Part shown: one piece after another, positions 17,445-45,410 of the stretch
How the letters are laid out: every line of letters starts with the position of its first letter
How positions within the stretch are numbered: position 1 is the first letter of the stretch
NCBI GenBank assembly: GCA_964576115.1
Contig: CAZNUA010000023.1
Coordinates: forward strand, 1-52,336
Origin: an uncultured Gemmatimonadota bacterium
GTDB taxonomy: Bacteria > Blakebacterota > Blakebacteria > Blakebacterales > Blakebacteraceae
Direction of reading: 5' to 3'
Length of the DNA stretch: 52,336 nucleotides
Made by a program: the position numbers and the translations under genes
Notes under the pieces: generated by a model
The model's input: the letters and a program-made list of their open reading frames with translations, nothing else
Told to the model about the DNA's origin: nothing
Databases searched by the model: none

Positions 17445-18791
17445 CTATGAACGACTCCGCATCTGGCCGATGGCGATCTCGGCCGCGTTGACCAGCGGGT
17501 AGGCGACCGGCGAGGCCGTCAGGGCCGGATGAGTCCCGGTCTGGAACATGGCCACCTCTTCGGCCGTCATCCGCTGCTGGACGCAGGCGGCCACACTGTT
17601 GATCAGACCGCCGACGTTGTCGCCTCCCCGGATCTGTCCGCCGAGCAGAACGCCGGTTTTGGCTTCGAAGACGAGCTTCATTTTGGTCGAGGAAGCACCG
17701 GGCATGATCCCCGGGTGACGGTTCGGTCCCTCCACGCTCCCGACGGCCACTTCGTAGCCGTTGTCCAGGGCCATCTTTTCGGTCAGACCGGCGGTGCCCA
17801 GAGCGAAGCCGCCAACGGCGGTGGACCAGACGCCGACCGTGCCCGGATTGTCCCGCGTCACCCCGAACAGGTTCGCGCCCGCTACCCGTGCTTCGGTCGA
17901 CGCGATCGAGGCCAGCTTGAGAGGCGAGATCCGACCCCCGAAGAAGGACAGTTTCTCGGCACAGTCCCCGCAGGCGAAGATGTTGTCATCGGAGGTACGC
18001 ATGGTGCTGTCGACCGCGATGCTGCCGGTCAAGCCCAGCCGGAGACCCGCCTTCTGGGCCAGTTCGACATTGGCGACAGCCCCGATGCCGAGCACGACCA
18101 TGTCGGCCGGGAGCGTCGAGCCGTCCGAAATCCGGACCCCCTCGACCCGGCCCGAGCCGACGATTTCCTCCACCCGGGTGTCGATGCGTACGTCGATCCC
18201 CCGCTCGCGCAGCACTTCTTCGGCCTCGACACAGAACTCTTCATCATAAGCCAGACTCAGGCAGTGGGGCAGGATCTCGACGATGGTAACCGTTTTGCCC
18301 CCGGTCTTGAGGATCTCGTCGGCGAATTCGATGCCGATGAACCCTCCCCCGATGATGACGACTTCCGACACCTCGGTGAGCCGCTGTTGGAAGTCGCGCA
18401 TGTAGTCGACATCCTTCTGAACGGCGTACACCCCCTCCAGATCGAAACCCGGTATCGGCGGTACGGCCGGCAGGCTGCCCGTAGCCAGGATGAGCTTGTC
18501 GTAGGCAATCTCCTCACCACCCGCAGTGACGGTCTTGCCTTCACAGTCAATCCCGGTCACTTCGGCGACGATGAGATCGATGTTGTTTTTCTCCAACGGT
18601 GTGTCCGGCATCAGATTCTTCTCCGGACTGCCCACGGTACCGATGATGTAGGGTATGCCGCAGGGTATCAGGACCTGCTCTTCCTTGCGGATGAGGAGAA
18701 TACTCTTGTCCGGGTAATGTCTGCGGGTCGTGACTGCCGCCGTCAGGCCGGCGGCACTGCCCCCGATAATCACAACGTCTGCCGCTTTCAT
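17445..18791 (-). CDS. FAD-dependent CoA-disulfide reductase / NADH oxidase family protein
   Basis: IIGGSAAG, redox Cys in PCGIPY, LATGS, GGGFIGIE, FACGDC, C-terminal dimerisation domain. Start MKAADVV. Confidence 0.9.
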   Translation of the reverse strand: MKAADVVIIGGSAAGLTAAVTTRRHYPDKSILLIRKEEQVLIPCGIPYIIGTVGSPEKNLMPDTPLEKNNIDLIVAEVTGIDCEGKTVTAGGEEIAYDKLILATGSLPAVPPIPGFDLEGVYAVQKDVDYMRDFQQRLTEVSEVVIIGGGFIGIEFADEILKTGGKTVTIVEILPHCLSLAYDEEFCVEAEEVLRERGIDVRIDTRVEEIVGSGRVEGVRISDGSTLPADMVVLGIGAVANVELAQKAGLRLGLTGSIAVDSTMRTSDDNIFACGDCAEKLSFFGGRISPLKLASIASTEARVAGANLFGVTRDNPGTVGVWSTAVGGFALGTAGLTEKMALDNGYEVAVGSVEGPNRHPGIMPGASSTKMKLVFEAKTGVLLGGQIRGGDNVGGLINSVAACVQQRMTAEEVAMFQTGTHPALTASPVAYPLVNAAEIAIGQMRSRS

Positions 18792-19041
18792 GTTCCACTC
18801 CTGTTCCTGCCCGCGGCTCTCCTCCTCGCCTGACACCGAGCCCGGGACCTGCGTACGTTTTGTCAATTTTCGGATAGTGACACTTCACGGTGGGCACGTA
18901 TCCCCGGCCGGCCCGGCAGCCGAGGTCGGGGGAGGCAGACACTGCTGACATCACGATAGGCATGGCGGGCGGGAATACAACCCCGTTCTCAAAATAAAAC
19001 CGCCCCCACGATTCCTGCTGTCACCCGAACTCTCAAACCGA

Positions 19042-19065
19042 TCCGGGCCGCGATCGGCCCGGAGC
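19042..19065. terminator. GC hairpin just after the stop of the DUF6599 gene
   Basis: TCCGGGCCG-cgat-CGGCCCGGA, with only a weak U-tract. Confidence 0.35.
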
Positions 19066-19067
19066 CC

Positions 19068-19994
19068 TCAGAGCGGCAGATCGGCCGCGATCGCCTCCAA
19101 CAGAGTGTCGGCATCGCTCCGGTCGGCCAGACCCAGAGTACCGATCACGAAGCGGCCCACCGCCCGGGCCGATACCGGTCCGTAGTAGGTTGTGTCGGTA
19201 TCGATCCGATCGACCGCAACCTCGGCGTCGGCCGCGAGCTGTCCCTGCCTCTCGAGGCTTTCGCGGAAGGTGGCCAGGGCTGTTTCAGCCGCCTCGGTCG
19301 AAACCTGCTCGACCACGAACGCCCGGCCCTCCCCCCCCGGCATCGCGTACCGGGCTTCGAGGGCGCCCTCGAAAACCTCCTGCCCCAGAAAGCCGGTGGC
19401 GACATAGCGCAGGGAGCGGGGCACCCGGCCCTCGGCCGGCAGCCAGGCGAACTGCTCGGGCAGTGCTGTGGGGAGGATCGCATCGGCCACGGCGCGCGCC
19501 CCGGCGTGCATGGCTTCTGTGAGAACGCTCTCGGCGTCCCCGGCATTGACCTGGACGTAGAAGCGCCCCTTCCAGAAACGGAGGTTCAGCTCCGAGACGA
19601 TCGCCTCGGCACCGATGGCGTCGAACTCGAGTTCGGGGCGCCGGAAGCTGGAGTAGATCCCGAAGGCATTCAGAGGAGTGCCCATGTCGTAGACATCGAA
19701 GGTCACCGAAGCCAGGATGTCATCGCCCAGAATCTGGACCCCGGTGGCCATCTCTATGAAGTCATAGGCGATATAGATCTCGGCTTCGCCGTTGATGTAC
19801 TCGAACAGGGTTTCCGGGGTGTAGATCTCGGGCTCCAGATCCCAGCTCCAGCCTGCTCCCGCATCGGGGACCGGCATCAGGGCCAGGGGGTGCTGTTCGA
19901 CCCGGGTATGCGAGCAGGCGCCGAGAATCAGCAGAGCAGCCGACAGCCAGACGACGGCCGCAGGGCAGCGGGCCGCAGGTGAACGCAACGACAT
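19068..19994 (-). CDS. DUF6599-like lipoprotein
   Basis: ILGAC lipobox, LFEYINGEAEIY, DVYDMGTPLNAFGIYS, FWKGRFYV. Confidence 0.75.
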   Translation of the reverse strand: MSLRSPAARCPAAVVWLSAALLILGACSHTRVEQHPLALMPVPDAGAGWSWDLEPEIYTPETLFEYINGEAEIYIAYDFIEMATGVQILGDDILASVTFDVYDMGTPLNAFGIYSSFRRPELEFDAIGAEAIVSELNLRFWKGRFYVQVNAGDAESVLTEAMHAGARAVADAILPTALPEQFAWLPAEGRVPRSLRYVATGFLGQEVFEGALEARYAMPGGEGRAFVVEQVSTEAAETALATFRESLERQGQLAADAEVAVDRIDTDTTYYGPVSARAVGRFVIGTLGLADRSDADTLLEAIAADLPL

Positions 19995-20015
19995 GGGATC
20001 CCTCCCGGAATCAGG

Positions 20016-20815
20016 TCACGGCTGCGAACCGTCGGCACGCGTAATCCCGATTTCGCGGGCGATCCGGGCGTACGGTTCGGCCAGTTCGTACTCGGGCAGA
20101 CGGATCTTGTCGAAGGGCAGGCGGCGTTCGTGCCGGTCGAGATGTTCGAGACCTTCCAGCAGGTCGGCGGCCCGTGTTGCGGGCAGGCTGAAGATCATCT
20201 CGTCGTCCCCGGCTGCTGCCACCCCACGGTCTCCCATGCAGGGTGCGCTCACCCACCACGAGCCCTCCTCGAGCGGGGGCACAACGGCGTACACGCAGGC
20301 GGCGTGCCCGCCGATCCGGTTCGGCACATCGCGGCCGTCGACATACGCGGCGGCCAGGAGCAGGTGCGTGAGCCGGGCTCCGTCGGCATAGATCACGATC
20401 ACATCGGGTTCGAAGGGCGCCGTTTCGAGCGGGGCCGAAACGATCCCCACATAGCTGCCGGCGTCGAATCGGGGGAATTCGCGGCTCGCCCACTGCTGGC
20501 CCGCCTCGAGGGTGGCCACATCTTTCGGCCAGCGGTTGTGGCCCCCCAGAAAGTAGGCCGGCGCCTCGACCATACCGTACCCGATCGCCGGTTCGGGGCA
20601 CCACATGTCCTCGAGCAGCTGGGCCACGACCTTGCCCTGCCGGCGCGAGGCGGCGAAGCAGACACAGGTGTTCAGGGTCGTCCCCAGATCCCGGCGGGGC
20701 CTTTCGGCCCCGTCGGGTATCTCGTCCTCATTCCGCAGCAGGCGGATCGCCAGCGGGTGGGTGGACAGACGCAGCTGATCGGCAAGCCGGCGGGCCAGTT
20801 CGACATACACGCCCA

Positions 20816-20816
<1 letters not shown>
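20016..20816 (-). CDS. DUF169 family protein
   Basis: Start MGVYVELA overlaps the M14 gene stop. Motifs CVCF, WCPEP, PDVIVIY, HAACVY, PCMGDR. Confidence 0.8.
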
Positions 20817-23731
<2,915 letters not shown>

Positions 23732-27282: not shown

Positions 27283-27516
27283 CTATTTTGAGGAATCCCC
27301 GGTCCCCTCTTTCTCGACTACCTCGATGGCGAAGTCGGGGCAGAGCATCTCGCAGAGCAGGCAGCCGACGCAGTCTTCGGGCCGGGCCGCCACGGCCACG
27401 AGCCCGTCCATTTCGAGAACGCCGGGCTTGCAGACCTCGACACAGACTTCACAACCCTTGCACCATTCCTGATTGATCGTGATTTCCCAGGAAGCTCGTG
27501 CGGTCCTCGTGGCCAT
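27283..27516 (-). CDS. 2x[4Fe-4S] ferredoxin (KorD/delta-subunit-like)
   Basis: [12 protein letters not shown] and [24 protein letters not shown]. Confidence 0.9.
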
Positions 27517-32520: not shown

Positions 32521-33144
32521 ATGGACTACCTCAGCCTGTTGCGTAACAGCCACATCTTCGCGGCTGCGGTGCGCGAAGTGCTGGAAGAGAAGTTCCTGGA
32601 GGAAACCACTCCCTCCCCCCTCTCCCTATCCCAGTTTCATCTGCTCAAACTGCTCTCGATCCGGAGTTCCCACCATGTCAGGGAAGTCGCCGATTTCCTG
32701 GGCATGAGCACCGCCGCGGCCTCGAAAAATATCACCAAACTCGAAGGGCTCGGCCTGCTCGAGCGCAACCGTTCCGAAGGCGACCGGCGGGCGATGGAGC
32801 TCTCGATCACACCCAAGGGGCGGCGTACGGTACTGTCGTACGAGGAACTCAAGGCAGCCCGGCTCTATCCGCTGCTGAGCGAATTCAGCGAACCAGAGAT
32901 TGAAGAGTTCACCCGGCTCCTCGAACAGTTCTCGGTCCGGCTTTACGAGCTGGAACTGGAGAATGGCGGGGAACCGCAAAACGGTACCTGCCTGCGCTGC
33001 GCTGCGTACCTGGATAGTACCTGCCCGGTGGGAGATCTCCTGGGTGGGTGTCCGTATCAGAAAGTACTGCAGACCGGTCCTCCGGCCGCAAACCCCGGAA
33101 GGGCCGAAAACAGCCCGGGCCACATTGCGGACACTGTCACCTGA
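32521..33144 (+). CDS. MarR-family regulator with a C-terminal four-Cys motif
   Basis: LSLSQFHLL, VREVADFLGMSTAAASKNITKLEGLGLLER..DRR, then CLRC-x7-C-x8-CPY. Confidence 0.9.
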   Translation: MDYLSLLRNSHIFAAAVREVLEEKFLEETTPSPLSLSQFHLLKLLSIRSSHHVREVADFLGMSTAAASKNITKLEGLGLLERNRSEGDRRAMELSITPKGRRTVLSYEELKAARLYPLLSEFSEPEIEEFTRLLEQFSVRLYELELENGGEPQNGTCLRCAAYLDSTCPVGDLLGGCPYQKVLQTGPPAANPGRAENSPGHIADTVT

Positions 33145-33160
33145 TGACGGGAAGAGTCTG

Positions 33161-33517
33161 ATGAAGTACTGGCGTACACCTCTCGACCTCGACAAGGTCA
33201 CCATTCCGCACGGGGAAGTACTCATTATCGAAGACCGCTGCAAGGGGTGCGGCTTTTGTGTCGAGTACTGCCCCAAAGGGGTACTGGCCCTGTCGGAACG
33301 ATTCAATAAGAAGGGATATCACCCCCCGGAGGTCATCAAGACGGGTGAGTGCGTCAACTGCAACCTCTGCGAGATGATCTGCCCCGATTTCGCGATCTTC
33401 AGCCAGGCGCTGCCCGATCAGGTGGTTGCCGAGTTGCAGGACCAGATCGACGCCAGGGGGGGCGGAGAAAAGACCGAGGCAACGGCGGAGGAGAAGGAGG
33501 ATACCAGTGAAAGCTGA
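33161..33517 (+). CDS. korD: 2-oxoacid:ferredoxin oxidoreductase delta (ferredoxin) subunit
   Basis: CKGCGFCVEYCP, NKKGYHPP, CVNCNLCEMICPDFAI. Confidence 0.9.
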   Translation: MKYWRTPLDLDKVTIPHGEVLIIEDRCKGCGFCVEYCPKGVLALSERFNKKGYHPPEVIKTGECVNCNLCEMICPDFAIFSQALPDQVVAELQDQIDARGGGEKTEATAEEKEDTSES

Positions 33518-34667
33518 TCCCAAGGGCGTCCTGACGGGAGCGCATTACCTCGACGGCGACTTTGCCGCCGGCGAGGGAGCGATGGCGGCCGGCTGCCGTT
33601 TCGTGGCCGGATATCCCATCACTCCCTCGACCGAGGTGGTCGAGAGGATCTCGCGCCGCTTTCCCTTCATGGGCGGCACCTTCATCCAGATGGAAGACGA
33701 GCTGGGAAGCATGGCTGCCGTTGTCGGGGCTTCGTGGACCGGCACCAAATCGATGACGGTCACCAGCGGCCCGGGCTTCAGCCTGATGATGGAGAACCTC
33801 GGCCTGGCGGTGATGATGGAAACCCCCTGCGTGCTGGTCAACGTGCAGCGGGGCGGCCCCTCGACCGGCCTGCCCACCATGACGGGGCAGTCGGACATGA
33901 TGCAGGCCCGCTGGGGCTCGCACGGCGACTACGAGCTGATCGCCATGAGTCCCAAATCACCCCAGGAGGCGTTCGATATCATGATCGACGCCTTCAATAT
34001 AAGCGAGGTCTACCGGGTCCCGGTCCTGGTCATGATGGATGAATGCGTGGGACACATGACCGAAAAAGTCATCATCCCGCCGGCCGAGGAGATTGAACTC
34101 ATACCGCGCAAGCTCACCGAGAAGAAACCCGGGGAATACTGGCCTTATGAGGTCAGCAACGGCAGTCTGGTACCCGAATTCGCCCGGGTCGGCGACGGGT
34201 ATCGCTTTCACTCCACCGGACTGACCCACGACTACCGCGGTTACCCCATCATGAGCGCGGAGTGCCAGTGGGAGTGCGTGAGCCGGCTGGTCGACAAGAT
34301 CAAGAAGAACGCCGACGACATCGTCAAGTTCGAGGAAGAGGAGACCGACGGCGCCGACGTGGTGGTGCTCTCCTACGGCATCACTTCGCGGGTGGCCCGG
34401 ATGGGCATCGATATGGCGCGCAAGAAGGGCATCAAGGTCGGCGTGATCAGGCTGATCGTGGTCTGGCCCTTCCCCGAAAAACGGATTCGCGAACTGGCCC
34501 CGAAGATCAAGGGCTTCGTGGTCCCCGAAATCAATCTCGGTCAGGTATCGCTCGAGGTCGAGCGCTGCGTGGCGGGTAAATGCACGACCACCCTTGTACC
34601 CCACCCCGGCGGCGGCGTGCACGATCCCGAGGCAATCTTCGAAGCAATCGTGGGAGCGGCGAAATGA
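33507..34667 (+). CDS. korA: 2-oxoacid:ferredoxin oxidoreductase alpha subunit
   Basis: AGYPITPSTE, FIQMEDE, TSGPGFSLM, VQRGGPSTGLPT. GTG start after AAGGAGG. Confidence 0.95.
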   Translation: MKADPKGVLTGAHYLDGDFAAGEGAMAAGCRFVAGYPITPSTEVVERISRRFPFMGGTFIQMEDELGSMAAVVGASWTGTKSMTVTSGPGFSLMMENLGLAVMMETPCVLVNVQRGGPSTGLPTMTGQSDMMQARWGSHGDYELIAMSPKSPQEAFDIMIDAFNISEVYRVPVLVMMDECVGHMTEKVIIPPAEEIELIPRKLTEKKPGEYWPYEVSNGSLVPEFARVGDGYRFHSTGLTHDYRGYPIMSAECQWECVSRLVDKIKKNADDIVKFEEEETDGADVVVLSYGITSRVARMGIDMARKKGIKVGVIRLIVVWPFPEKRIRELAPKIKGFVVPEINLGQVSLEVERCVAGKCTTTLVPHPGGGVHDPEAIFEAIVGAAK

Positions 34668-35572
34668 GCGCACAGGCAACGACAGAGACCAAGCGGGAGG
34701 TCCGTCCCGAGGATCACCCGATCGCACCCTTCATCCGCATGGACCGGATGCCGCACATCTGGTGTCCCACCTGCGGGATCGGGACGGTCGTCAAATGCTA
34801 CGCGGCGGCCCTGGAAAAGCTCGAACTCGACTACTCCAAGGTGGTAGTGGTTTCGGGAATCGGCTGTACCGGCCGAGTGGCGGGCTACATGAACTTCGAT
34901 GCCTTCCATACCACCCATGGTCGGGCGATTCCCTTCGCCACGGGGCTGAAGATGGCCCGTCCCGAACTGAACATCACGGTTTTCAGCGGCGACGGCGACC
35001 TGTCGGGCATCGGGGGCAACCACTTCATCCACTCCGCCCGGCGGCACATGGACCTGCTGGTCATCCTGGTCAACAACTTCATCTATGCCATGACCGGCGG
35101 CCAGAACGCACCCACCACACCGATCGGCGCCAACTCCTCGACCATGCCCCACGGCAACTTCGACACCCCCTTCAACCTGCCCCATCTGGCGGCCAGCTGC
35201 GGCGCCAGCTACGTGGCCCGGTGGACCTCCCTGCACATCCGCCGGATGACCAACACCTTCGAGGAGGCGCTGCAGCGCAAGGGGTTCCGCTTCGTCGAGG
35301 TGGTCGCCCCCTGCTCCACCCTCTACGCCCGGCGGAACAAGCTGGGCACGGGGCTGAACCTGATGCAGTTCTATCACGACAATTCCGAGATCAGGCACGG
35401 TGAAGACACGCGCAATCTCGATATCGGTTATCAGGAGAAGATCATCTGCGGCAAGTTCGTCGATGACACCGAGCAGACCACCTTCATCGAGAATATGCAC
35501 GCCCACTATGAAAAACGCCTGGGCGAGGACTACGTCCCCATGGGCCCGGAGGGAGGCATGCTCCATGAGTAG
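34664..35572 (+). CDS. korB: 2-oxoacid:ferredoxin oxidoreductase beta (TPP-binding) subunit
   Basis: WCPTCG, SGIGC, HTTHGRA, GDGD...GGNH...NN, MTGGQ. Confidence 0.95.
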   Translation: MSAQATTETKREVRPEDHPIAPFIRMDRMPHIWCPTCGIGTVVKCYAAALEKLELDYSKVVVVSGIGCTGRVAGYMNFDAFHTTHGRAIPFATGLKMARPELNITVFSGDGDLSGIGGNHFIHSARRHMDLLVILVNNFIYAMTGGQNAPTTPIGANSSTMPHGNFDTPFNLPHLAASCGASYVARWTSLHIRRMTNTFEEALQRKGFRFVEVVAPCSTLYARRNKLGTGLNLMQFYHDNSEIRHGEDTRNLDIGYQEKIICGKFVDDTEQTTFIENMHAHYEKRLGEDYVPMGPEGGMLHE

Positions 35573-36197
35573 GAAAGAGATCCGCATCACCGGCTTCGGC
35601 GGTCAGGGAGTGGTGCTCTGCGGCCACATCATCGGTCACGCCTACTCGATCGACGCCGGGAACGAAGCCACCATGATTCAGAGTTTCGGCCCCGAGGCCC
35701 GCGGCTCGGCCTGTTCGACCTCGCTCGTGCTCGACGAGCAGGAGGTCCTCTATCCCTATCTCAAGGGGCTCGACATCCTGGTGGCGATGTCGCAGGACGG
35801 CTACGACAAGTACGTTGAGGACCTGGCTCCGGACGGCACCCAGATCTACGAGTCCGATCTGGTCGAACCCGTGGTCACGAAGGACCAGAAAGCCTTCGGT
35901 ATCCACTCCACCCGTATCGCCGAGGAGATCGGCCGGGTCATCGTGCAGAACATCGTCATGCTCGGTTTCTTCGCGGCGGTGACCCGAATGGTCTCGAAAG
36001 ACGAGTGGATCTCGGCCGTCACCGATTCGGTGCCGGCCGGGACCGAAGAACTCAACCTGAAAGCCTTCCACGCCGGCTGGGACTGGTACGAAGAAAAGTA
36101 CGGCGACGGGAAGGGGAGCGAACCTGAGGCCGCCGCCGACCAGGGCGGTGAGGCCGAAAAAGAAGCGAGCCCCGAGGAAACGGTCGCGGCCGAGTAG
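35565..36197 (+). CDS. korC: 2-oxoacid:ferredoxin oxidoreductase gamma subunit
   Basis: GFGGQGVV, SFGPEARGSAC, NIVMLG, NLKAF. Confidence 0.93.
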   Translation: MSRKEIRITGFGGQGVVLCGHIIGHAYSIDAGNEATMIQSFGPEARGSACSTSLVLDEQEVLYPYLKGLDILVAMSQDGYDKYVEDLAPDGTQIYESDLVEPVVTKDQKAFGIHSTRIAEEIGRVIVQNIVMLGFFAAVTRMVSKDEWISAVTDSVPAGTEELNLKAFHAGWDWYEEKYGDGKGSEPEAAADQGGEAEKEASPEETVAAE

Positions 36198-36252
36198 CCG
36201 GGAACGTTGCCTTACTGGAGGAACCCCACTCTGAGCAGTGAGGAGAGTGAGG

Positions 36253-39200
36253 ATGAGCGCAGAAGTCGCTGCGGCTGAGGAAGCTGAGGCGAGAGTCAGC
36301 CGGCGCGCAGTCGTGATCGGAGGCGGCATTGCAGGCATGCAGGCCGCCCTCGACCTGGCCAACGCCCGGATACCCGTCACGCTGGTGGAAGCGTCGCCGT
36401 CGCTGGGGGGCCGGATGGCCCAGCTCGACAAGACCTTCCCCACGATGGACTGCTCCATATGAATCCTCGGCCCTCTGGCCATGGATGTCGGTCGACATCC
36501 ACTCATCGAGGTCGTCACCAACGCCGAGGTCGTCGGCTGCGAGGGTGAACCGGGAGACTTCCGGATCACCGTCCATCAGCACCCGCGCTTCGTGAAGGAA
36601 GACGTCTGTGTGGCCTGCGGGCTCTGTGTCGAGACCTGCCCCCAGGTGGGCGGCAACGAGTTCGACATGGGCCTGAAAGCCCGCAAGGCGATCTACCGTC
36701 CCTTTCCGCAGTCGGTCCCGGCGGCATATGTGATCGATCCCTTCGCCTGTCTGAATTTCCTGCCGCACCTGGACGAGAAGCAGAAGAAGCGGCTCGAGAA
36801 AGTGCAGGCCGCCAAGGCGAAGAAACGTCCCGACGTCGCCCTGCCCCACCTGCCCTGCGGCCACTGCCAGGAAACCTGCGAGGTAGGCGCGATCGACTTC
36901 GACATGCTCCCGCGCGAGTGGGAGGTCGAGGCCGGCTCGGTTCTGGTCGCCATCGGCTTCCAGGAATTCGACGCCCGCAAGCTCGGCCAGTACGGCTACG
37001 GCCGGTTCCCGAACGTGATCACCAGTCTCGAACTGGAGCGTATGCTCAACGCCTCGGGGGTCACCCAGGGGCACATGGTGCGACCCTCCGATCTCGGCAC
37101 TCCGAAGCGAATCGTCTTCATCCAGTGCGTCGGCGCCCGCGGCGACGGCGGGCGGCCTTACTGCAGCCGCTTCTGCTGCATGAACGCGGTGAAGGATTCG
37201 ATGCTCATCCGTCAGCACGATCCCGAAGTCGAGGACATCACCATCCTCTACACCGACCTGCGCGCCTTCGGGAAAGGCTTCGACGACTTCGTCAAACGCA
37301 GTGTCGAGGAACAGAGTGCGGAGTACGTGCGCGGCCGTCCCGCCAAGATCGATCTCGATCCCGACGGCAAGACCCTCGTCGTCTACGTCGAAGATACGAT
37401 CGAGCACGAGCAGCGGCGGATCCCCGCCGATCTGGTCGTGCTGAGTGTGGCCGCCGCGCCCAACGACGGCGCTGTCGAGTTGGCGAAGACCCTCGAGATC
37501 GAAACCGACCAGTACGGCTTCATCACGCCCCGGGACCCGGCCGTGAGCAGTGTCGAGACCCGGCGCGACGGTGTGTACGTCTGCGGCTCGGCGATCGGGC
37601 CCCAGGTCATCCCCGACGCCGTAGCCCAGGCTTCGGCCGCCGCGGCCCGGGCCGAACTCTTCCTGCACGGTCACCGTATCGAGGAAGTGTCCGAACCGCC
37701 CGAACCCATGGACACCTCCGGTGCGCCCCGGATCGGGGTGCTGGTGTGCAGTTGCGGAGCCAACATCGGCGGCGTGCTCGATGTCGAGGCACTTGCCGAA
37801 TACGCCCGCTCCATCCCCGATGTAGTGGCCGCCGAAACCTCGATGTTCGCCTGTGCCGAGACCGGCCAGGACCAGGTTGTCGAGCTGATCAAAGAGAACG
37901 ACCTCAACCGTGTGATCGTGGCCTCCTGCACCCCGCGCACGCACGAACCGGTTTTCCGGGAGACCTGTGCCCGAATCGGTTTCAACCCCTACCTGCTCGA
38001 TATGGTGAACATCCGCGACCAGTGCTCGTGGGTGCATGCCAACGAGCCCGAGCTGGCCCAGGTCAAGGCAAAAGACCTGATCCGCATGAGCGTGGCCCGT
38101 ACGCGCAACCTCGAACCGCTCTTCGAGAGCGAGGTACCGATGACCCGTACCGCCCTGGTGCTGGGCGGCGGCATCGCCGGCATCCAGGCCGCCACCGGTT
38201 TGGCCGAACAGGGCTTCGAGACCATCCTGGTCGAGAAGGAGGAGGCCCTCGGCGGGCGCCTGCGCGACCCGAACCTGCATTACCTCTACCCCACCATGCG
38301 GCCCGCCGCCGACGTGCTGAAGACGAACATCGCCCGGCTGAAAAAGAGCGGTGCCCGCATCCTGACCGGTACCGAGGTGGAGAGCATCGATGGTTTTGTC
38401 GGCAATTTCGACATCACTCTGACCGGAGCTGTTTCCGAGGAGGTAAAGGTCGGGGCCATCATCCTGGCCTTCGGCGCCTCCCTGCACGATCCGGGCGAGG
38501 AGTTCGGGTACGACCGTCGTGAGAACGTGATCACGAGCGAAGAACTCGAGACGATCTTCTGCGAGAACGACGACCAGGTGCTGATCGGGGGCCGCAAACC
38601 CGAGAGTGCGTCCTTCATTCTCTGTGTCGGGTCGCGCGAAGAGCACGGTTTCACGGGCTGTTCGCGCTACTGCTGTCCGACCGCCATCAAGCAGGCCCTG
38701 ATCCTGAACGAACAGGGCATCAACACCACCATCTTCTACCGCGACATCAGGACCGTTTCGGCCGGAGCCGAGGAGATGTACCGCAAGGCCCGCGGCCAGG
38801 GGGTACTCTTCATCCGTATCCCCCCCGGCGAGAAACCCGAGATTCTCGGCAACGAACGGGCCGAGGGATTGCGCTGTTACGATGAGCTGCTCGGACAGAA
38901 GCTCGAGGTACCGACCGACCTGGTGATCCTGAGTGTCGGCATGCGGCCGCGCCAGCCCGAGACCGAAAAATTTCACCTCATGCTCAAGGCCAGTATCGGT
39001 CTCGACGGTTTCTTCCTGGAGCGGCATCCCGAGCTCGGCCCGGTGGAAACGGTCGTGGAAGGAGTCTTCCTGGCCGGCACCATTCAGGGCCCCAAGGACA
39101 TCGTCGACTCGGTCGCCCAGGCCTCGGCCGCGGCCGCCAAAGCGGCAGTTCTGCTGTCTTTCGACAGCGTGCGCGTCGAGCCGACCGTTTCGGTCGTGGA

Positions 39201-39432
39201 TGAGGAACGCTGCCGGGGCTGCGGGACCTGCGTGGATATCTGTCCCTTCTCCGCCGCCGCGCTGGTCGAGATCGACGAGGGCGCCCATGTGGCCCGGATC
39301 AACGCTTCGCTCTGCAAGGGGTGCGGTACCTGTGCCGCCTGGTGTCCGTCAGGCGCTATCGCCGCCAAACATTTCACCGACCGTCAGGTCATGTCGATGA
39401 TCGATGCGGCGCTCGCGAAGGAGGCGCCATGA
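36253..39432 (+). CDS. hdrA: Heterodisulfide reductase subunit A-like protein, two-module, selenoprotein (Sec at TGA 36460-36462)
   Basis: ORFs 36238-36462 and 36481-39432 are in one frame: GGGIAG...LDKTFPTMDCSI*ILGPLAMDVGRHP. Also has CSRFCC, CSCGANI, SCTPRTHEP, a second GGGIAG and a C-terminal ferredoxin. Confidence 0.93.
36482..36501 (+). promoter_or_regulatory. Bacterial SECIS-like hairpin of hdrA1
   Basis: TGGATGTC-GGTC-GACATCCA. 27 nt lie between the UGA and the loop. Confidence 0.8.
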
Positions 39433-40064
39433 CCGCGCAGGCGAAGAAGAAGACATCCGCGAAGAAAAAGGCGGGCAACACGAAAACCGCGGCGAAGAAA
39501 ACGGCTGCAAAGAAGAAAACCGCGGCGAAGAAAACGGCTGCAAAAAAGAAAACTGCAACGAAGAAGACCGCGGCAAAAAAGACGGCTGTGAAAAAGAAGG
39601 CCGCCGCGGTCGCCGCCGAGCCGACCGCTGCCGCCCCTGACGGAAAATGGAATCCCGATATCGTGGTCTTCGCCTGCAACTGGTGCTCGTATGCCGGTGC
39701 CGACACGGCCGGGGTATCGCGTCTGCAGCACGAACCGCACTTCCGGATGATCCGGGTCATGTGCTCGGGCCGGGTGCATCCCGGATTCGTGATGCGGGCC
39801 TTCGAGAAGGGAGCCGATGGCGTGCTCGTCTCGGGCTGCCACATCGGCGACTGCCACTATGTCTCGGGGAATGAACGCCAGATCGAGATCTTCGAGATCA
39901 CCAAGCAGCTCACCCACCTGATCGGACTCGAACCGGGGCGGGTGCGGCTGGAGTGGGTCAGTGCCGCCGAGGGGCCCCGCTGGGCCGCTTTGATCAACGA
40001 ATTCACCGACCAGATCCGCAGGCTGGGCCCGAGCCCGCTCAAGGATCAACCGACGGCACGATGA
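39429..40064 (+). CDS. mvhD: MvhD/FlpD [2Fe-2S] subunit with a Lys/Ala-rich N-terminal extension
   Basis: [44 protein letters not shown]. Confidence 0.93.
   Translation: MTAQAKKKTSAKKKAGNTKTAAKKTAAKKKTAAKKTAAKKKTATKKTAAKKTAVKKKAAAVAAEPTAAAPDGKWNPDIVVFACNWCSYAGADTAGVSRLQHEPHFRMIRVMCSGRVHPGFVMRAFEKGADGVLVSGCHIGDCHYVSGNERQIEIFEITKQLTHLIGLEPGRVRLEWVSAAEGPRWAALINEFTDQIRRLGPSPLKDQPTAR
39483..39581 (+). repeat. 33-nt tandem repeat, about 3 copies, encoding KTAAKKTAAKK
   Basis: AAAACCGCGGCGAAGAAAACGGCTGCAAAGAAG, then a 1-mismatch copy, then a degenerate copy. Confidence 0.85.
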
Positions 40065-40080
40065 GGGAGAGTACGGCACG

Positions 40081-41229
40081 ATGGTCGACCTGACTGACGT
40101 CACGCGCAGATCGAAGGCCTGGGCCTGCTACGATTGCGGCAAGTGCACCGCCACCTGCCCTATCGCCCGTGTCGGCGGCTCGTACAGTCCGCGCCGGCAC
40201 ATTCTCTCCAGCAACACCGGCAATCCCGCCTTCATCCTGGAGCAGGAAACGCTTTTCGCCTGCCTGACCTGCAGCCTGTGCGAACAGCGCTGCCCCGCCC
40301 AGGTGCATTACACCGACCTGGTCAAGTACCTGCGCGAGATGGCCTGGGAAGAGGGAATCGAACCCGACTGCCCGCACGGCGGCACGATCCAGTCCCTGAT
40401 CCGGATGATGGCTCAGGGCGGTACGCAGCAGAACCGCCTGGAATGGCTGACCGAAGACCTGAAGACCAGCCCCGACGAAGGCGAGGTCTTCTTCTGGACC
40501 GGCTGCACGATGTACTACGACGCCATCTTTGCCGAATACGAGGGGGCCCACCCCCTCGAAGGCACCCGCGCCGCGGTCCGCCTGCTCAACGCCCTGGACG
40601 TCACTCCGGTCGTGAGCCCACAGGAGCGCTGCTGCGGCCACGATCTGCTCTGGAACGGCGACCGGGAAAACTTCGAGAAACTCGCCCGGCACAACGTCAA
40701 ACTGGTTCAGGATTCCGGGGCTTCGATCCTGGTCACCTCCTGCGCTGAATGCCTGCGGACCTGGAAGCTCGATTACGAACCGTACTTCGAGGGATCGATG
40801 CCCGAGATCGTCCATATCTCCGAGTATGTCGCCCGGCATCTGCCCGAGCTCGAACTCACAGGCAACGGCGGCCTGACCGTCACCTACCAGGATCCCTGCC
40901 GGCTCGGCCGCCAGCTGGGGATCTACGACGCCCCCCGCGAGGTCATGCAGGCCGTACCCGGCCTGGAGCTGGTCGAAATGCGGCACAACCGGACCGGTGC
41001 GACCTGCTGCGCCGGCGGGACCTGGTCGAACTGCGACATCTACGCCAAGAAGATCCAGGTAACCCGGCTGACCGAAGCGCGGGCCACCGGGGCCCAGGTC
41101 ATGGTCACGGCCTGTCCGAAGTGTCAGATCCACTTCAGCTGTGCCATGAAGGATCCGATCGAGAAGGAGAACATCACCATCGAGATGCGCGACGTGGCCG
41201 AGATTCTGCTCGACGCGCTCTCGACGTAA
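40081..41229 (+). CDS. HdrD/GlpC-like Fe-S protein (2x[4Fe-4S] plus two CCG domains)
   Basis: [48 protein letters not shown]. Confidence 0.9.
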
Positions 41230-41267
41230 CAAACAACAAAGACCGTTTCCGGGAAGGAAAGGGACTG

Positions 41268-43772
41268 ATGCAAGCAGACACGTCAACAGGCGAAGAGCTC
41301 CGGATCGGCGTCTTCATCTGCGACTGCGGCCTGAATATCGCAGGTGCAGTGGACACCGCCGCCGTGACGGAATACGCCGAGACGCTGCCCGATGTGGCGT
41401 GCGCAATACGCAATAAATACACCTGCGCCGACCCCGGTCAGAACGAGATCAAGAGGGCCGTTCAGGAGTACAAGCTCAACCGCGTGGTCGTTGCCTCCTG
41501 CACCCCGCGCCAGCACGAGCCGACCTTCCGGCAGTGCGTCTCCGAGGTGGGGCTGAACCCCTACCTCATGGAGATGGCCAACCTGCGCGAGCACTGCTCC
41601 TGGGTCCACCCCAACGACCGCGAAGGCGCCACCGCCAAGGCCAAGGACCTGGTCGCCGGTGCTGTGGCCCGGGCCCGTTTCCTGAAGAGCCAGGATGAGC
41701 TGACGGTTCCGGTTTCGCAGCGCGCCCTGGTGATCGGCGGCGGCATCGCCGGGATCGAGGCGGCGATCGAACTGGCCGATGCGGGACACAAGGTCACCCT
41801 GGTCGAAAAAGCGCCCTCCATCGGTGGGATCATGGCTCAGCTCGACAAGACCTACCCCACCATGGACTGCTCTATATGAATTCTGGGCCCTAAGGCCATC
41901 GATGCCGGTCGGCATCCGAATATAGAGCTGCTCACCTACAGCGAGGTCGAAGCCGTCTCGGGCTACGTCGGCAACTTCGAGGTCACGATCCGCAAGAAGG
42001 CCCGCTATGTGGACCTCGAGACCTGCAACGCCTGTGCCGAGTGCGCCAATGTGTGCCCGCAGGTCGTGCCCGACGAGTACCAGGTGGGACTTTCGGCCCG
42101 CAAGGCGATCTACATCCCCTTCCCGCAGGCGGTACCCTGTGTCTATGTCCTCGACATGGAGAACTGCCTGGGCAACAACCCGATCGCGTGCGGCAAGTGT
42201 GCCGAGGTGTGCGAGCAGAACGCCATCAACTACGACGACGCCGACGAGCTGATCACCCGCGAAGTCGGAGCGGTCATCGTGGCCATCGGTCTGGATGTCT
42301 ACGATCCGACCGAGATGGACGAGTACGGTTACACCCGCTTCGAGAACGTGATCACCTCGATGGAGTTCGAACGCCTGATCTGCGCCGGGGGACCGACCGA
42401 GGGGCACTTCGTGCGCCCGAGCGACATGGACCACCCCAAGCGGATCGGTTTCATCCAGTGCGTCGGGTCGCGCAATCCGGCCATCGGGCGACCCTACTGC
42501 TCGAATATCTGCTGCATGAACACCGTCAAGGACACCCTCCTGCTGGCCGACCACTATCCCGATGTGGAGAACGTGGTCTTCTACCAGGATATCCGCGCCT
42601 TCGGCAAGTCGTTCGAGGACATGTTCCAGCGCTCGAAGGAATCAGGTACCCGCTACGTGCGGGGCCTGCCCGGCGACATCGAGGAGGATCCCGAAACCAA
42701 GAACCTCGTCATCACGGTCGAGAACACCACCTCGGGCCGGATCGAGAGGCACGAGCTGGACATGGTCGTGCTCTCGGTCGGGGTGGTTCCGCCCAAGGAT
42801 CTGAAGAAGATCTCGGGGCTCTTCACCCTCTCGAAGACCTCCGACGGGTTCTTCATGGAATCGCACCCGAAACTGAAACCGATCGACGCCCCCACCAAGG
42901 GGGTGTATTTCGCCGGTTTCTGCGAGGCCCCGAAGGACATCAAGGACTCGGTCTGCCAGGCCGGCGCCGCGGCCTCGAAGGTGGGAGCCCTGCTCAACGC
43001 CGGAGAGGTCCGCATCGAGGCCCTCACCAGCCACATCGACGAGGAACTCTGCACCGGTTGCGGTGTCTGTGCCTCGGTCTGTCCCTTCTCGGCGATCCGC
43101 TGGGAGAAGGGCCAGAAGGCCCATGTCATCGAAGCGATGTGCGCCGGCTGCGGGGCTTGCGGAGCGGCCTGCAACTTCGGCGCCATCGAGATGCGGCACT
43201 TCACCGACTCGCAGATGGTGGCCCAGATCCAGGCCGTGCTGGCAGACAAACCCGAGGAGAAGGTCTTCGTCTTCGCCTGCAACTGGTGTTCGTATGCCGG
43301 AGGCGACATGGCGGGGATCTCCCGTCTCCAGTATCCGACCTCGAACCGCGTCGTCAGAACCATGTGTTCGGCGCGGGTATCCGAAGAAATGGTTCTCGAA
43401 GCCTTCCGCAACGGGGCCGCGGTGGTGCTGGTCTCGGGCTGCCATTACGCCGACTGCCATTACATCAGCGCCAACCGCGAGACCGTCAAGCGGGTCCAGC
43501 GGCTCTGGAACAAGCTCGAGAAGGCCGGGGTGCGCCCCGAGCGGCTGCAGCTGGAGTGGATCAGCGCCGCCGAGGGCCAGAAGTTCGCCAAGGTGATGAG
43601 GCAGATGGAGGAGCTGCGCTCGACGGTCACGCTCGAAGAGGTCGAGTACGCCCGCGAGGCGCTCAAACCGAAGTCGAAGAAAGAGAAGAAGGCCAAGGCC
43701 GGGGAGGATGCCAAAGCCTCCGCAAAGACGGAAGAGACGGAGAAGGCGGAGACCGAAACGGTCTCGAACTGA
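41268..43772 (+). CDS. hdrA: HdrA-MvhD fusion, selenoprotein (Sec at TGA 41877-41879)
   Basis: [12 protein letters not shown]...GGGIAG...[35 protein letters not shown] continues in frame into ORF 42009-43772. Also CSNICC, a ferredoxin and a C-terminal FACNWCSY...GCHYADCHY. Confidence 0.93.
41901..41916 (+). promoter_or_regulatory. Bacterial SECIS-like hairpin of hdrA2
   Basis: GATGCC-GGTC-GGCATC. 27 nt lie between the UGA and the loop. Confidence 0.8.
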
Positions 43773-43829
43773 CCGCCGGCCGGGTGTCGTGTCCCGCGGC
43801 AGTGAACGAGCTTCGAACGGGAGAACGAG

Positions 43830-43976
43830 ATGGTTGTTCATTATTTCCGCTGCATGATGTGCGGCTACGAGTGGGAGGAAGAGGTCGATCCGGATAAGGA
43901 GGTGGAGCGTACCTGCCCGAAGTGCCGCTCCAACTCGATCCGGCATTTCAAGCGGAAACCCGAACCGAAGGAGTAG
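43830..43976 (+). CDS. 48-aa zinc-ribbon/rubredoxin-like protein
   Basis: MVVHYFRCMMCGYEWEEEVDPDKEVERTCPKCRSNSIRHFKRKPEPKE*. GGGAG RBS. Stops 4 nt before the hdrC ATG. Confidence 0.82.
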   Translation: MVVHYFRCMMCGYEWEEEVDPDKEVERTCPKCRSNSIRHFKRKPEPKE

Positions 43977-43980
43977 CCGG

Positions 43981-44487
43981 ATGGCCGCCGAGCAGAAGGA
44001 TAACGACGTCGTCAGGGTCGACTTCGCCTTCAAGCGGGAACTGGCCGAGAAGGTCGAGGGCAACCTGGCCAGCTTCTGCTACCAGTGCGGGGCCTGCGTC
44101 GGCGACTGCCCGGCAGCGACCTATACCGACGATTTCAATCCCCGCATGATCATGCTCAAAGTCCTCTACGGGCTGGGAGAGGAACTCATCGGCAGCGATT
44201 CCATCCTCTGGGAGTGCACCAACTGCTACAACTGTGCCGAGCGGTGTCCCCAGGAGGTCAAACCGGCCGAAGTGATCATCAGCATGAAGAACATGATGGC
44301 CGACCGCGGCATCTACCCCGAGGGGGTCGAGAAGGTCATCACCACCTTCGAGACCACCGGGCGCACTGTCCCGATGAGTTCGGCGATAGACAAGCAGCGG
44401 GCCAAGTTCGGCCTGCCGCCTCTCGAGCCCGTTCCGATGGACGAGATCAAAAAGCTCCTCGAGCCCTCCGGGAAAGGAGACGAGTAA
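43981..44487 (+). CDS. hdrC: Heterodisulfide reductase subunit C
   Basis: CYQCGACVGDCP, FNPR, LWECTNCYNCAERCPQ. Confidence 0.93.
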   Translation: MAAEQKDNDVVRVDFAFKRELAEKVEGNLASFCYQCGACVGDCPAATYTDDFNPRMIMLKVLYGLGEELIGSDSILWECTNCYNCAERCPQEVKPAEVIISMKNMMADRGIYPEGVEKVITTFETTGRTVPMSSAIDKQRAKFGLPPLEPVPMDEIKKLLEPSGKGDE

Positions 44488-45410
44488 TGGAACGGTTCGC
44501 CTTCTTCCCCGGCTGTCTGGTGCCCGCCCGCTATCCCGCCATGGAGTTCGCCATCCGCAAAACCCTGCCCAAACTGGGCATCGAGATCATCGATCTTGAG
44601 GGCACCTCCTGCTGTCCCGACCCGATCTACTTCAAATCCAAAGACAAGATCTCCTGGCTCTCGGTCGCGGCCCGCAACCTCTGCCTGGCCGAGGAACAGG
44701 GGGTGGACGTCTTCACCAACTGCTCGGGCTGTACCGCCACCCTGTCGGAAACCTGGCACCTGTTGCATGACCACGAGGACATCCGCGACAAGGTCAACGA
44801 ACGGCTGGCGAAGATCGGCAAGGAGTGGAAAGGCACCAGCAAGGTCCGCCACATCGCCACCCTGGTGCGCGATATCGCCGGCTACGAGGCGGTGCGCGAA
44901 ACGGTCGTGCGTCCTCTCGAGGGCCTGAAGGTGGCCATCCACTACGGCTGCCACCTGCTCAAGCCCAGCAAGATCATGAACGTGGACGATCCCAACGATC
45001 CGCAGATGCTCGAGGAACTGGTCAGAGCCCTGGGAGCCGAACCGGTGCGGCACAGCAAGTGGTACCTGTGCTGTGGCAAGGCCTGCCAGTTGAACGACGA
45101 TCTGCCCGACACCATGATGCGCGATCTGCTCACGACGGTGCGGGAAGAGGAAGCCGAGATCCTCTGCCTGATCTGCCCTACCTGTTTCAGCCAGTTCGAC
45201 TACGGTCAGCTCAAGGTCGCCCGGCGTTTCGAAGAGGACTTCCACATCCCGCCGATTTACTATTTCCAGCTCCTGGCCCTGGCGCAGGGCATCGAGTATG
45301 AAGATCTCGGGTTCGAGCGGCAGCGCTTCAAACCTGAATGCCTGCAGCGGTTCGAGATCACCGTGACCGAACCCGAATCCGAGCCCGAACCCGAGCCGGA
45401 GACGGCCTGA
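44487..45410 (+). CDS. hdrB: Heterodisulfide reductase subunit B
   Basis: FFPGC, SCCP, CSGC, HYGCH, LCCG, CPTC..QFD. TAATG overlap with hdrC. Confidence 0.93.
   Translation: MERFAFFPGCLVPARYPAMEFAIRKTLPKLGIEIIDLEGTSCCPDPIYFKSKDKISWLSVAARNLCLAEEQGVDVFTNCSGCTATLSETWHLLHDHEDIRDKVNERLAKIGKEWKGTSKVRHIATLVRDIAGYEAVRETVVRPLEGLKVAIHYGCHLLKPSKIMNVDDPNDPQMLEELVRALGAEPVRHSKWYLCCGKACQLNDDLPDTMMRDLLTTVREEEAEILCLICPTCFSQFDYGQLKVARRFEEDFHIPPIYYFQLLALAQGIEYEDLGFERQRFKPECLQRFEITVTEPESEPEPEPETA

Follow-up and report, generated by a model that had tools for sequence, protein, structure and literature searches.

Analysis of contig C23 of an uncultured Gemmatimonadota bacterium (assembly GCA_964576115.1, CAZNUA010000023.1) revealed a block of twelve genes that joins a four-subunit 2-oxoacid:ferredoxin oxidoreductase (Kor) to a set of proteins of the heterodisulfide reductase (Hdr) type. 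The complete 52,336-bp contig, referred to below as the window, belongs to a 3.96-Mb genome (64% G+C, 93.7% complete). Judged from its sequence, this is a real, conserved and selenium-dependent Kor-Hdr operon. We give a probability of about one half to the view that its eleven structural genes encode one soluble, flavin-based bifurcating or confurcating multi-subunit supercomplex, in which Kor is wired to HdrA. Everything beyond the joint inheritance of the genes, namely that electrons are bifurcated, that Kor binds Hdr and that a thiol/disulfide is the substrate, is what we infer from the features described below.

Gene calling between positions 32521 and 45410, based on codon-position G+C and domain searches (Pfam, NCBIfam), distinguished 12 genes, all on the + strand, in the order marR-korD-korA-korB-korC-hdrA1-mvhD-hdrD-like-hdrA2/mvhD-Zn ribbon-hdrC-hdrB. 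The expected domains were found in all of them. The successive spacings from marR to hdrB are 16, -11, -4, -8, 55, -4, 16, 38, 57, 4 and -1 nt; the widest gap (57 nt) separates hdrA2 from the Zn ribbon gene, while the korC-hdrA1 and hdrD-hdrA2 gaps measure 55 and 38 nt, respectively. An earlier note, made from the DNA letters alone, had described a co-directional marR-to-hdrB block with overlaps or gaps of less than 60 nt, and this description proved correct. A consensus scan found no terminator-like site in the + strand intergenic gaps of the block, the sole + strand site of this kind falling within korD. The next gene after hdrB is yggS-like and lies 124 nt downstream. The domain search also gave the same tally as the earlier note: three FAD modules, of which HdrA1 has two and HdrA2 one, two MvhD (FlpD) domains and two proteins with double CCG domains. 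No hydrogenase, formate dehydrogenase (Fdh) or NAD(P)H-binding Flx-type domains were detected in the 12 open reading frames (ORFs). The earlier statement that such electron donors are missing is therefore right for the cluster, but it does not extend to the genome, in which an Mvh-type hydrogenase (contig C1) and a Hox-type [NiFe] hydrogenase (contig C25) are encoded.

The arrangement of the kor and hdr genes is conserved far beyond chance. A scan of representative genomes yielded 259 relatives, and the locus counts given here refer to the best 80 of them. When the window proteins were used as tblastn queries, 66 loci had enough flanking sequence upstream and 50 downstream. The korDABC genes are located directly upstream of the HdrA1 orthologue, in this order, in 61 of the 66 loci; in three more, korDAB are upstream and korC is found behind hdrB. 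Two upstream misses are second HdrA1 copies, each situated just downstream of a complete cassette (on the contigs that also gave L016 and L042). The genes mvhD-hdrD-hdrA2-hdrC-hdrB follow downstream, in order, in 46 of the 50 loci, and the four exceptions are the same two second copies and two versions of 48% identity (L031 and L041), for which hdrCB were not found within the flank. To judge from the record titles, the loci come from more than ten phyla, all as metagenome-assembled genomes (MAGs); named among them are Gemmatimonadota, Zixibacteria, several Acidobacteriota classes, Planctomycetota, Latescibacterota, Fermentibacteria, Eisenbacteria, Ignavibacteria and ‘Deltaproteobacteria’. Nine of the ten genomes examined from the organism's own phylum (the source genome included) have a match at E ≤ 1e-150, with 68–100% identity for the best match in each, and the genome without a match is 83% complete.

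The block is a discrete cassette, since its flanks differ between loci, and the synteny search proposed in the earlier note showed it to be conserved across many phyla. A survey of annotated gene clusters present in at least 4 of the 80 loci returned, as recurrent flanks, MarR, a GNAT gene (14 loci), a two-subunit 2-oxoacid:ferredoxin oxidoreductase (OFOR; 10–11 loci), a methyltransferase-domain protein (8), an extra POR-gamma gene (7), an M49 peptidase (7), an extra HdrA plus MvhD (4–5) and a GGDEF gene (4). No hydrogenase, Fdh or Flx genes were among these recurrent clusters.

Several variants of the cassette were noticed. The korC gene stands behind hdrB, and not before hdrA1, in L049, L051, L083 and L085. 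A second double-HdrA copy directly follows the first in L016, L042, L069 and L072 (e.g. L069:13306-17766), and in L069 and L016 the match is broken by ~1.25 kb at a variable loop of the inserted ferredoxin domain. In a reduced variant, L076:9977-15100, the double HdrA runs into an HdrA2-type C-terminus with an MvhD domain; it lacks the separate mvhD gene, hdrD and the main part of hdrA2 but retains the Zn ribbon, hdrC and hdrB genes. This variant, found on a single MAG contig, could be a deletion or an assembly artefact.

Features of the Kor-Hdr cassette (positions in the window) and of the alignment of HdrA1 with HdrA 5ODC_A (residues)
Feature	Position	Strand	Description
marR	32521-33144	+	MarR-family regulator, Pfam MarR 1.2e-11
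korD	33161-33517	+	delta subunit, two [4Fe-4S] motifs; Fer4 and Fer4_7
korA	33507-34667	+	alpha subunit, GTG start; POR_N 8e-73 and PFOR_II
korB	34664-35572	+	beta (TPP) subunit; TPP_enzyme_C 1.4e-30
korC	35565-36197	+	gamma subunit; POR 6.7e-31
hdrA1	36253-39432	+	fused double HdrA, 1059 aa; in-frame TGA 36460-36462
Sec codon of hdrA1	TGA 36460-36462	+	aligned to Cys197 of 5odc_A (Sec70)
SECIS-like hairpin of hdrA1	36484-36499	+	22 nt after TGA, GGTC loop
mvhD	39429-40064	+	FlpD 2.2e-50; Lys/Ala-rich N-terminal tail of ~75 aa
hdrD-like	40081-41229	+	HdrC-type di-cluster domain and two CCG domains; CCG 1.2e-27 (two stretches), Fer4_8
hdrA2-mvhD fusion	41268-43772	+	single HdrA and MvhD, 834 aa; in-frame TGA 41877-41879
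Sec codon of hdrA2	TGA 41877-41879	+	same MDCSIU motif as hdrA1
SECIS-like hairpin of hdrA2	41901-41916	+	downstream of hdrA2 TGA
Zn ribbon	43830-43976	+	48 aa; Zn_ribbon_8 1e-05, under Pfam cut-off
hdrC	43981-44487	+	Fer4_8; TIGR03290 107 bits, under cut-off 160
hdrB	44487-45410	+	two CCG domains, CCG 8.9e-32; TIGR03288 299 bits, under cut-off 345
HdrA1 residues 44-167			aligned to 5ODC_A 171-294
HdrA1 residues 200-416			aligned to 5ODC_A 294-510
HdrA1 residues 491-662			aligned to 5ODC_A 3-174
HdrA1 residues 874-1052			aligned to 5ODC_A 472-648

Both HdrA genes contain an in-frame TGA within the motif MDCSI-U-ILGP, where U is the putative selenocysteine (Sec). The hdrA1 site is TGA in all 80 related loci, and the search did not favour TGA at this site, because the query began after it. 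The hdrA2 site is TGA in every HdrA2-type match of at least 59% identity. A hairpin resembling the selenocysteine insertion sequence (SECIS) follows each TGA. That of hdrA1, GAUGCCGGUCGGCAUC, has a GGUC loop, lies 22 nt past the TGA and is near-invariant in 120 distinct sequences, synonymous third positions included; its five consensus pairs are kept in 119–120 of the 120, and one pair is altered on both sides in 10. The genome encodes tRNA-Sec, and a SelB model has a match above its cut-off. HdrA1 and HdrA2 are thus predicted to be bacterial selenoproteins, with a conserved UGA, a downstream hairpin, tRNA-Sec and SelB all present, and the selenium dependence suggested earlier is supported. 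Two other explanations were considered. Pseudogenes broken by a TGA were ruled out by the conservation of this codon (80/80), and an archaeal origin of the Sec system by the location of the hairpin inside the ORF, directly after the UGA, and by the SelB match above cut-off.

The gene described in the earlier note as hdrA1 was found at the location given and with the Sec codon, but its product is not a single HdrA. It is a fused double HdrA, and it aligned to the methanogen HdrA 5odc_A in four permuted pieces (see table); the NCBIfam HdrA2 and HdrA models match it in 3–4 stretches. Module 1 combines a TrxR-like FAD domain, which bears the C67-x2-U70 motif, with an inserted ferredoxin domain. 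In module 2, an N-terminal domain is followed by a second TrxR-like FAD domain, which lacks both the insert and the CxxC, and by a C-terminal ferredoxin domain. The inserted ferredoxin domain (residues 241-332 of the window's HdrA2) has no counterpart in module 2, where YPTMRPAADV stands in place of MDCSIU. Lys314 of HdrA1 aligned to Lys409 of 5odc_A, and a Lys can be read from the sequence of module 2 too. A Lys near N5 is regarded as a bifurcation feature of the HdrA module (bioRxiv 10.64898/2026.04.10.717634, available part). The double HdrA recurred in 6975 of 8000 scored candidates at E ≤ 1e-30. Its best 120 relatives are 68–100% identical to it and nearly all ~983 aa long, the length that would result if gene callers placed the start behind the TGA. 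A Lys-rich insertion of ~32 residues (HdrA1 168-200, window 36754-36852), located within the inserted ferredoxin domain, is present in some relatives and not in others.

The genes downstream of hdrA1 encode further Hdr-type proteins. In the HdrD-like protein both five-Cys C...CC...CxxC motifs can be read as complete; its best NCBIfam match is TfrB, under cut-off, and its best Protein Data Bank (PDB) match is 9ojn_A (2.9e-29). HdrA2 scored 1142 bits with the HdrA2 model NF040770 (cut-off 1100) over residues 12-791, and carries its FlpD domain at residues 666-782 (2.1e-43). HdrB is similar to the methanogen HdrB 8rvu_b (4e-75), with all Cys motifs aligned and both five-Cys CCG motifs complete. 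By the NCBIfam cut-offs, HdrB and HdrC are not equivalogs of the proteins acting on coenzyme B–coenzyme M (CoB-CoM), but fold and Cys motifs are retained. A tblastn match for the Zn ribbon gene was found at the same place in most of the related loci listed, and no in-frame TGA is present in mvhD. Three proteins have charged, disordered tails: the net charge is at least +3 in 33/46 relatives for the N-terminal extension of MvhD (window 39429-39650; starts estimated) and in 43/58 relatives for the Lys-rich C-terminal tail of HdrA2 (window 43670-43769), and -3 or lower in 24/66 relatives for the C-terminal tail of KorD (window 33420-33514). Such tails could act as electrostatic tethers, though the evidence for this is weak.

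The alpha, beta, gamma and delta domain sets encoded together in korDABC are those of a four-subunit KorDABC/OorDABC-type 2-oxoacid:ferredoxin oxidoreductase. KorA scored 551 bits (cut-off 411) with NF006412, a generic 2-oxoacid:acceptor oxidoreductase model, and its closest solved chain is 1yd7_A (6.4e-110), a Pyrococcus-type ‘2-keto acid’ enzyme. The best-named matches for KorB (OGOR beta, 234 bits, cut-off 364) and KorD (OGOR_delta and OorD) are 2-oxoglutarate-specific models, yet all of these are under cut-off. The eight cluster Cys of KorD are invariant in 44 sequences. At the head of the block, the MarR protein has a C-terminal C-x2-C-x7-C-x8-C motif (C157, C160, C168 and C177; window 32989-33051), and all four Cys are kept in 49/49 loci with a MarR match. 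This motif points to a sensor of redox state, metal or Fe-S, as opposed to one for a classical aromatic ligand.

The closest structural analogue of the cassette in print is class II benzoyl-CoA reductase (BCRII) of Geobacter metallireducens, Bam[(BC)2DEFGHI]2, for which the available part of a recent preprint (bioRxiv 10.64898/2026.04.10.717634) presents BamE as a fused dimer of HdrA in which one FAD is bifurcating. Electrons enter BamE through its C-terminal ferredoxin domain and BamF; the high-potential electrons leave via BamD to ETF, and the low-potential ones via the inserted ferredoxin domain to BamC and BamB. BamE Cys59 and Cys62 form a disulfide 3.4 Å from cluster E3, on the low-potential path (same source), and by analogy a Cys-Sec pair would be its equivalent here. 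The likeness between BamDEF and the cassette was assessed by architecture and not by sequence alignment. In both, a fused double HdrA carries the ferredoxin insert and a CxxC-type motif only in its first TrxR module, its neighbours are an MvhD-type adaptor and an HdrBC-fusion/HdrD-like CCG protein, the catalytic partner has its own poly-[4Fe-4S] subunit (BamC or KorD), and the module contains selenocysteine. The position of Sec differs: it is in the adaptor in the Bam system (long BamF, Sec19) and in HdrA (CxxU) in the cassette, whose MvhD, unlike long BamF, consists of a short FlpD domain and a Lys-rich tail. Furthermore, both CCG motifs are intact in the HdrD-like protein, whereas most homologues of BamD have a disrupted distal non-cubane cluster, and the cassette, unlike Bam, includes a second complete HdrA2-HdrCB set. 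No domains of a tungsten AOR-type BamB or of the BamGHI input module were found in the 12 ORFs; this search covered the cluster and not the genome.

The idea of wiring Kor to Hdr has already been published. In the rTCA (reductive tricarboxylic acid cycle) clusters korABCD/tfrAB/flxABCD-hdrABC of tubeworm symbionts and Thioflavicoccus mobilis, a Kor-Flx-Hdr complex passing bifurcated electrons straight to the 2-oxoglutarate enzyme was proposed from the gene order (Rubin-Blum et al. 2019, PMC6315080, available part). Kor genes are mixed with Hdr genes there as in the cassette. Those clusters, found in autotrophic Gammaproteobacteria, have FlxABCD as NADH input, TfrAB and ATP citrate lyase (ACL), while the cassette, without Flx, TfrA or ACL, has the double HdrA, the HdrD-like protein and the HdrA-MvhD fusion instead. 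This Flx-containing cousin and BCRII are the closest systems in print. The earlier note had called the system uncharacterised, which holds to the extent that no published description of this gene set was found in the literature; the Kor-Hdr wiring itself had been proposed before. A 2021 review of HdrA(BC), not covered by this search, may treat such clusters; a preprint on HdrA evolution and the paper of Poudel et al. 2018 had nothing relevant to this gene set.

Two further systems resemble parts of the cassette. HdrA2B2C2 of Methanosarcina acetivorans, reported to be a ferredoxin- and F420H2-dependent enzyme (Yan et al. 2017, PMC5296606, available part), likewise combines an HdrA-MvhD fusion with HdrB and HdrC. 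The set described here differs in its bacterial host without known CoM/CoB (no search was aimed at genes for their synthesis), in the replacement of Cys by Sec, in having HdrB and HdrC under the equivalog cut-offs, and in being embedded in a larger block with Kor. The Mvh/Fdh-Hdr-Fmd(Fwd) complexes (PDB 5ODC, 7BKB, 8RVU), whose low-potential HdrA arm is wired to the CO2-fixing Fmd/Fwd in methanogen supercomplexes according to the available parts of PMC13580544 and PMC13518236, share the HdrABC core and the MvhD adaptor. They contain a hydrogenase or Fdh, whereas the cassette has none; instead it has Kor in the place of Fmd and an extra BamE-like flavoprotein. The cassette lacks mvhA and mvhG, the genes expected beside, or always together with, the hdr genes of an Mvh-Hdr complex; in this genome they are found on contig C1.

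By architecture and gene adjacency, HdrA1-MvhD-HdrD would form a BamEFD-like unit and HdrA2(MvhD)-HdrC-HdrB an HdrA2B2C2-like unit. The bifurcating flavin of HdrA serves three arms: electrons enter at mid potential through MvhD, and they leave at high potential to the CCG protein and at low potential through the inserted ferredoxin domain. In the proposed supercomplex, KorD would dock on a ferredoxin-like domain of HdrA and make Kor a hard-wired partner at ferredoxin-level potential. Kor would thereby take the low-potential arm, the place occupied by BamBC in BCRII and by Fmd/Fwd in the Hdr supercomplexes of methanogens, and the couple of 2-oxoacid and acyl-CoA plus CO2 (about -500 mV) would be linked directly to HdrA-type electron bifurcation or confurcation. 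The HdrD-like protein and HdrCB would be the high-potential ends, acting on a disulfide or a protein partner, and the MvhD adaptors the third arm, leading to a partner outside the cassette, either free ferredoxin or a variable donor. With its invariant four-Cys motif, MarR may adjust the expression of the genes to the redox or Fe-S state, and the device as a whole would be reversible.

The rest of the genome was screened for possible partners, as the earlier note had advised for mvhAG, fdh, flx and dsrC. Both mvhAG and dsrC are present, and neither an Fdh-alpha above cut-off nor an [FeFe] hydrogenase was found in the genome. A canonical hdrA-mvhD-mvhG-mvhA cluster lies at ~94.5–102.9 kb of contig C1 (L006:6452-14848) and precedes genes for a QmoA/HdrA-like protein, an Fe-S protein and a HycI maturation protease; no hdrBC genes adjoin it. 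The only FlpD homologues of the genome are the two in the cassette and two on contig C1, and the cassette MvhD is 49% identical to the C1 MvhD. The Hox-type [NiFe] hydrogenase on contig C25 (~29.3–34 kb; L007:6320-10947) is encoded by a NuoE/F fusion, a HoxU-like gene and a large-subunit gene. Some [NiFe] hydrogenase occurs in all six carriers examined (this genome and five others). A close MvhA orthologue (64% identity) is present in one of the five others; the best matches in three are 32–37% identical, and none was found in one genome with this query. The genome has one DsrC/TusE gene, and DsrC was detected in four of five carrier genomes searched (this one included), but not in the carrier whose record is titled ‘chromosome’ (G001), which rules out DsrC as an obligate substrate. 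Acetyl-CoA synthase was found in one of five carrier genomes searched (this one included) and not in this genome.

The genome also contains three more sets of OFOR genes and three additional Hdr-like loci. On contig C55 (L008:7971-12541, - strand), a second Hdr set is joined to thioredoxin-system genes in the order TrxR-like gene-hdrA-thioredoxin-like gene-hdrC-hdrB. The locus at ~190–195 kb of C1 (L009:9268-14328, - strand) encodes TusA, an MvhD-like protein, two HdrA-like proteins (455 and 684 aa), an ORF of 98 aa and a DsrE-like protein, and resembles the double HdrA divided into separate genes in a sulfur-carrier context. Contig C3 encodes a 634-aa HdrD-like protein. Within the window itself, the - strand region at 17445-23731, upstream of the block, encodes a pyridine nucleotide-disulfide oxidoreductase with dimerisation domain, DUF6599 and DUF169 proteins and an M14 carboxypeptidase-domain protein of 971 aa. 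A small 2x[4Fe-4S] ferredoxin gene is located at 27283-27516, also upstream of the block, and a scaffold gap of 100 N at 4117-4216.

The same genes could encode co-regulated but separate enzymes, their joint inheritance reflecting stoichiometry and not contact: Kor would work with free ferredoxin, HdrA2-HdrCB would oxidise that ferredoxin to reduce a disulfide, and the BamE-like trio would do a second ferredoxin-linked job. Free ferredoxin is the normal partner of Kor enzymes, and a small ferredoxin gene lies upstream of the block. HdrA2 exceeds the cut-off of its model, and the archaeal HdrA2B2C2 is reported to be ferredoxin-dependent (PMC5296606); in the four loci with korC behind hdrB the cassette is otherwise kept. 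On the other side, a korC-hdrA1 junction preserved in 61/66 loci across phyla is tighter than co-regulation needs, the other Kor sets of the genome could provide a general ferredoxin supply, and related hard-wired designs exist, such as BCRII (bioRxiv 10.64898/2026.04.10.717634). We consider separate enzymes somewhat unlikely.

A distal donor acting on the MvhD adaptors appears more doubtful. H2, oxidised by the C1 Mvh-type or another group 3 hydrogenase, would then drive bifurcation, with Kor as a 2-oxoacid synthase and a disulfide at HdrB/HdrD as the two outputs; the whole would be a CO2-fixing system like Mvh-Hdr-Fmd, with Kor for Fmd. The lack of hdrBC alongside the C1 cluster, the 49% identity of the two MvhD proteins and the [NiFe] hydrogenase in 6/6 carriers fit this model, and HdrA does feed a CO2-fixing enzyme in the methanogen supercomplexes (PMC13580544, PMC13518236). 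Less compatible with it are the rarity of close MvhA orthologues (one of five other carriers, the rest showing at most 37% identity or no match), the presence of HdrA and MvhD in the C1 cluster itself, the failure to find acetyl-CoA synthase in four of the five carrier genomes searched (this one included), and the absence of hydrogenases from the recurrent flanking clusters of the 80 loci.

That kor and hdr are two unrelated operons which merely abut, as the 55-nt korC-hdrA1 gap might allow, is very improbable, as the junction is kept in 61/66 loci of many phyla while the outer flanks vary, and 49 loci have one MarR gene, with its invariant Cys motif, at the front of the block.

A single complex is favoured by the domains, the tight spacing, the conserved order, the architecture of HdrA1, the HdrA2 score above cut-off, the Sec decoding and the published Kor-Hdr proposal. 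Several points weigh against it. The contact between Kor and Hdr is deduced from gene adjacency, which by itself does not demonstrate binding. Three partners are needed for each HdrA flavin, and Kor and the CCG sites are all that the cassette provides; because no third, mid-potential partner is encoded, either a distal partner is required or the flavins merely conduct and do not bifurcate. A hydrogenase could be this donor, all six carriers having a [NiFe] enzyme, and cross-talk with the other OFOR sets and Hdr-like loci of the genome is possible. The last point concerns direction. Between 2-oxoacid oxidation feeding disulfide reduction and bifurcation-driven reductive carboxylation, we lean very slightly to oxidation, because the genome is rich in peptidases and has peptidase genes nearby, no acetyl-CoA synthase was found and KorA is nearest to a Pyrococcus-type 2-keto acid enzyme. 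The structurally known hard-wired partners on the low-potential arm of HdrA are, however, all electron consumers in the available parts of the sources (PMC13580544, PMC13518236, bioRxiv 10.64898/2026.04.10.717634), and by analogy these precedents would favour reductive carboxylation.

A bolder version of the supercomplex reading, which we regard as unlikely, is that the cassette forms, on its own, an Hdr supercomplex with two flavins that is of an undescribed kind, widespread in sediment bacteria and working in one of two ways. In the first, CO2 could be fixed into 2-oxoacids by thiol-, ferredoxin- or H2-driven bifurcation; if true, the cassette would be the carboxylating counterpart of Hdr-Fmd, belonging neither to methanogens nor to any known autotrophic pathway. 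In the second, electrons from 2-oxoacids could serve as the mid-potential donor, a role played by ferredoxin in BCRII, and, at the expense of disulfide reduction, yield a reductant whose potential is lower than the ferredoxin range.

What is understood of HdrA-type bifurcation comes mainly from methanogens and, since very recently, from benzoyl-CoA reductase. The cassette described here differs little among many uncultured sediment phyla and occurs in nine of the ten genomes examined from its own small phylum. With eleven defined genes, two conserved Sec residues in a low-potential motif equivalent to CxxC and a redox-type regulator, it is a tractable target, and a system for testing which thiol or protein the bacterial HdrB and HdrD sites act on. 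It may exemplify a common means by which central 2-oxoacid/CO2 chemistry is coupled, with no hydrogenase involved, to energy-saving electron splitting.

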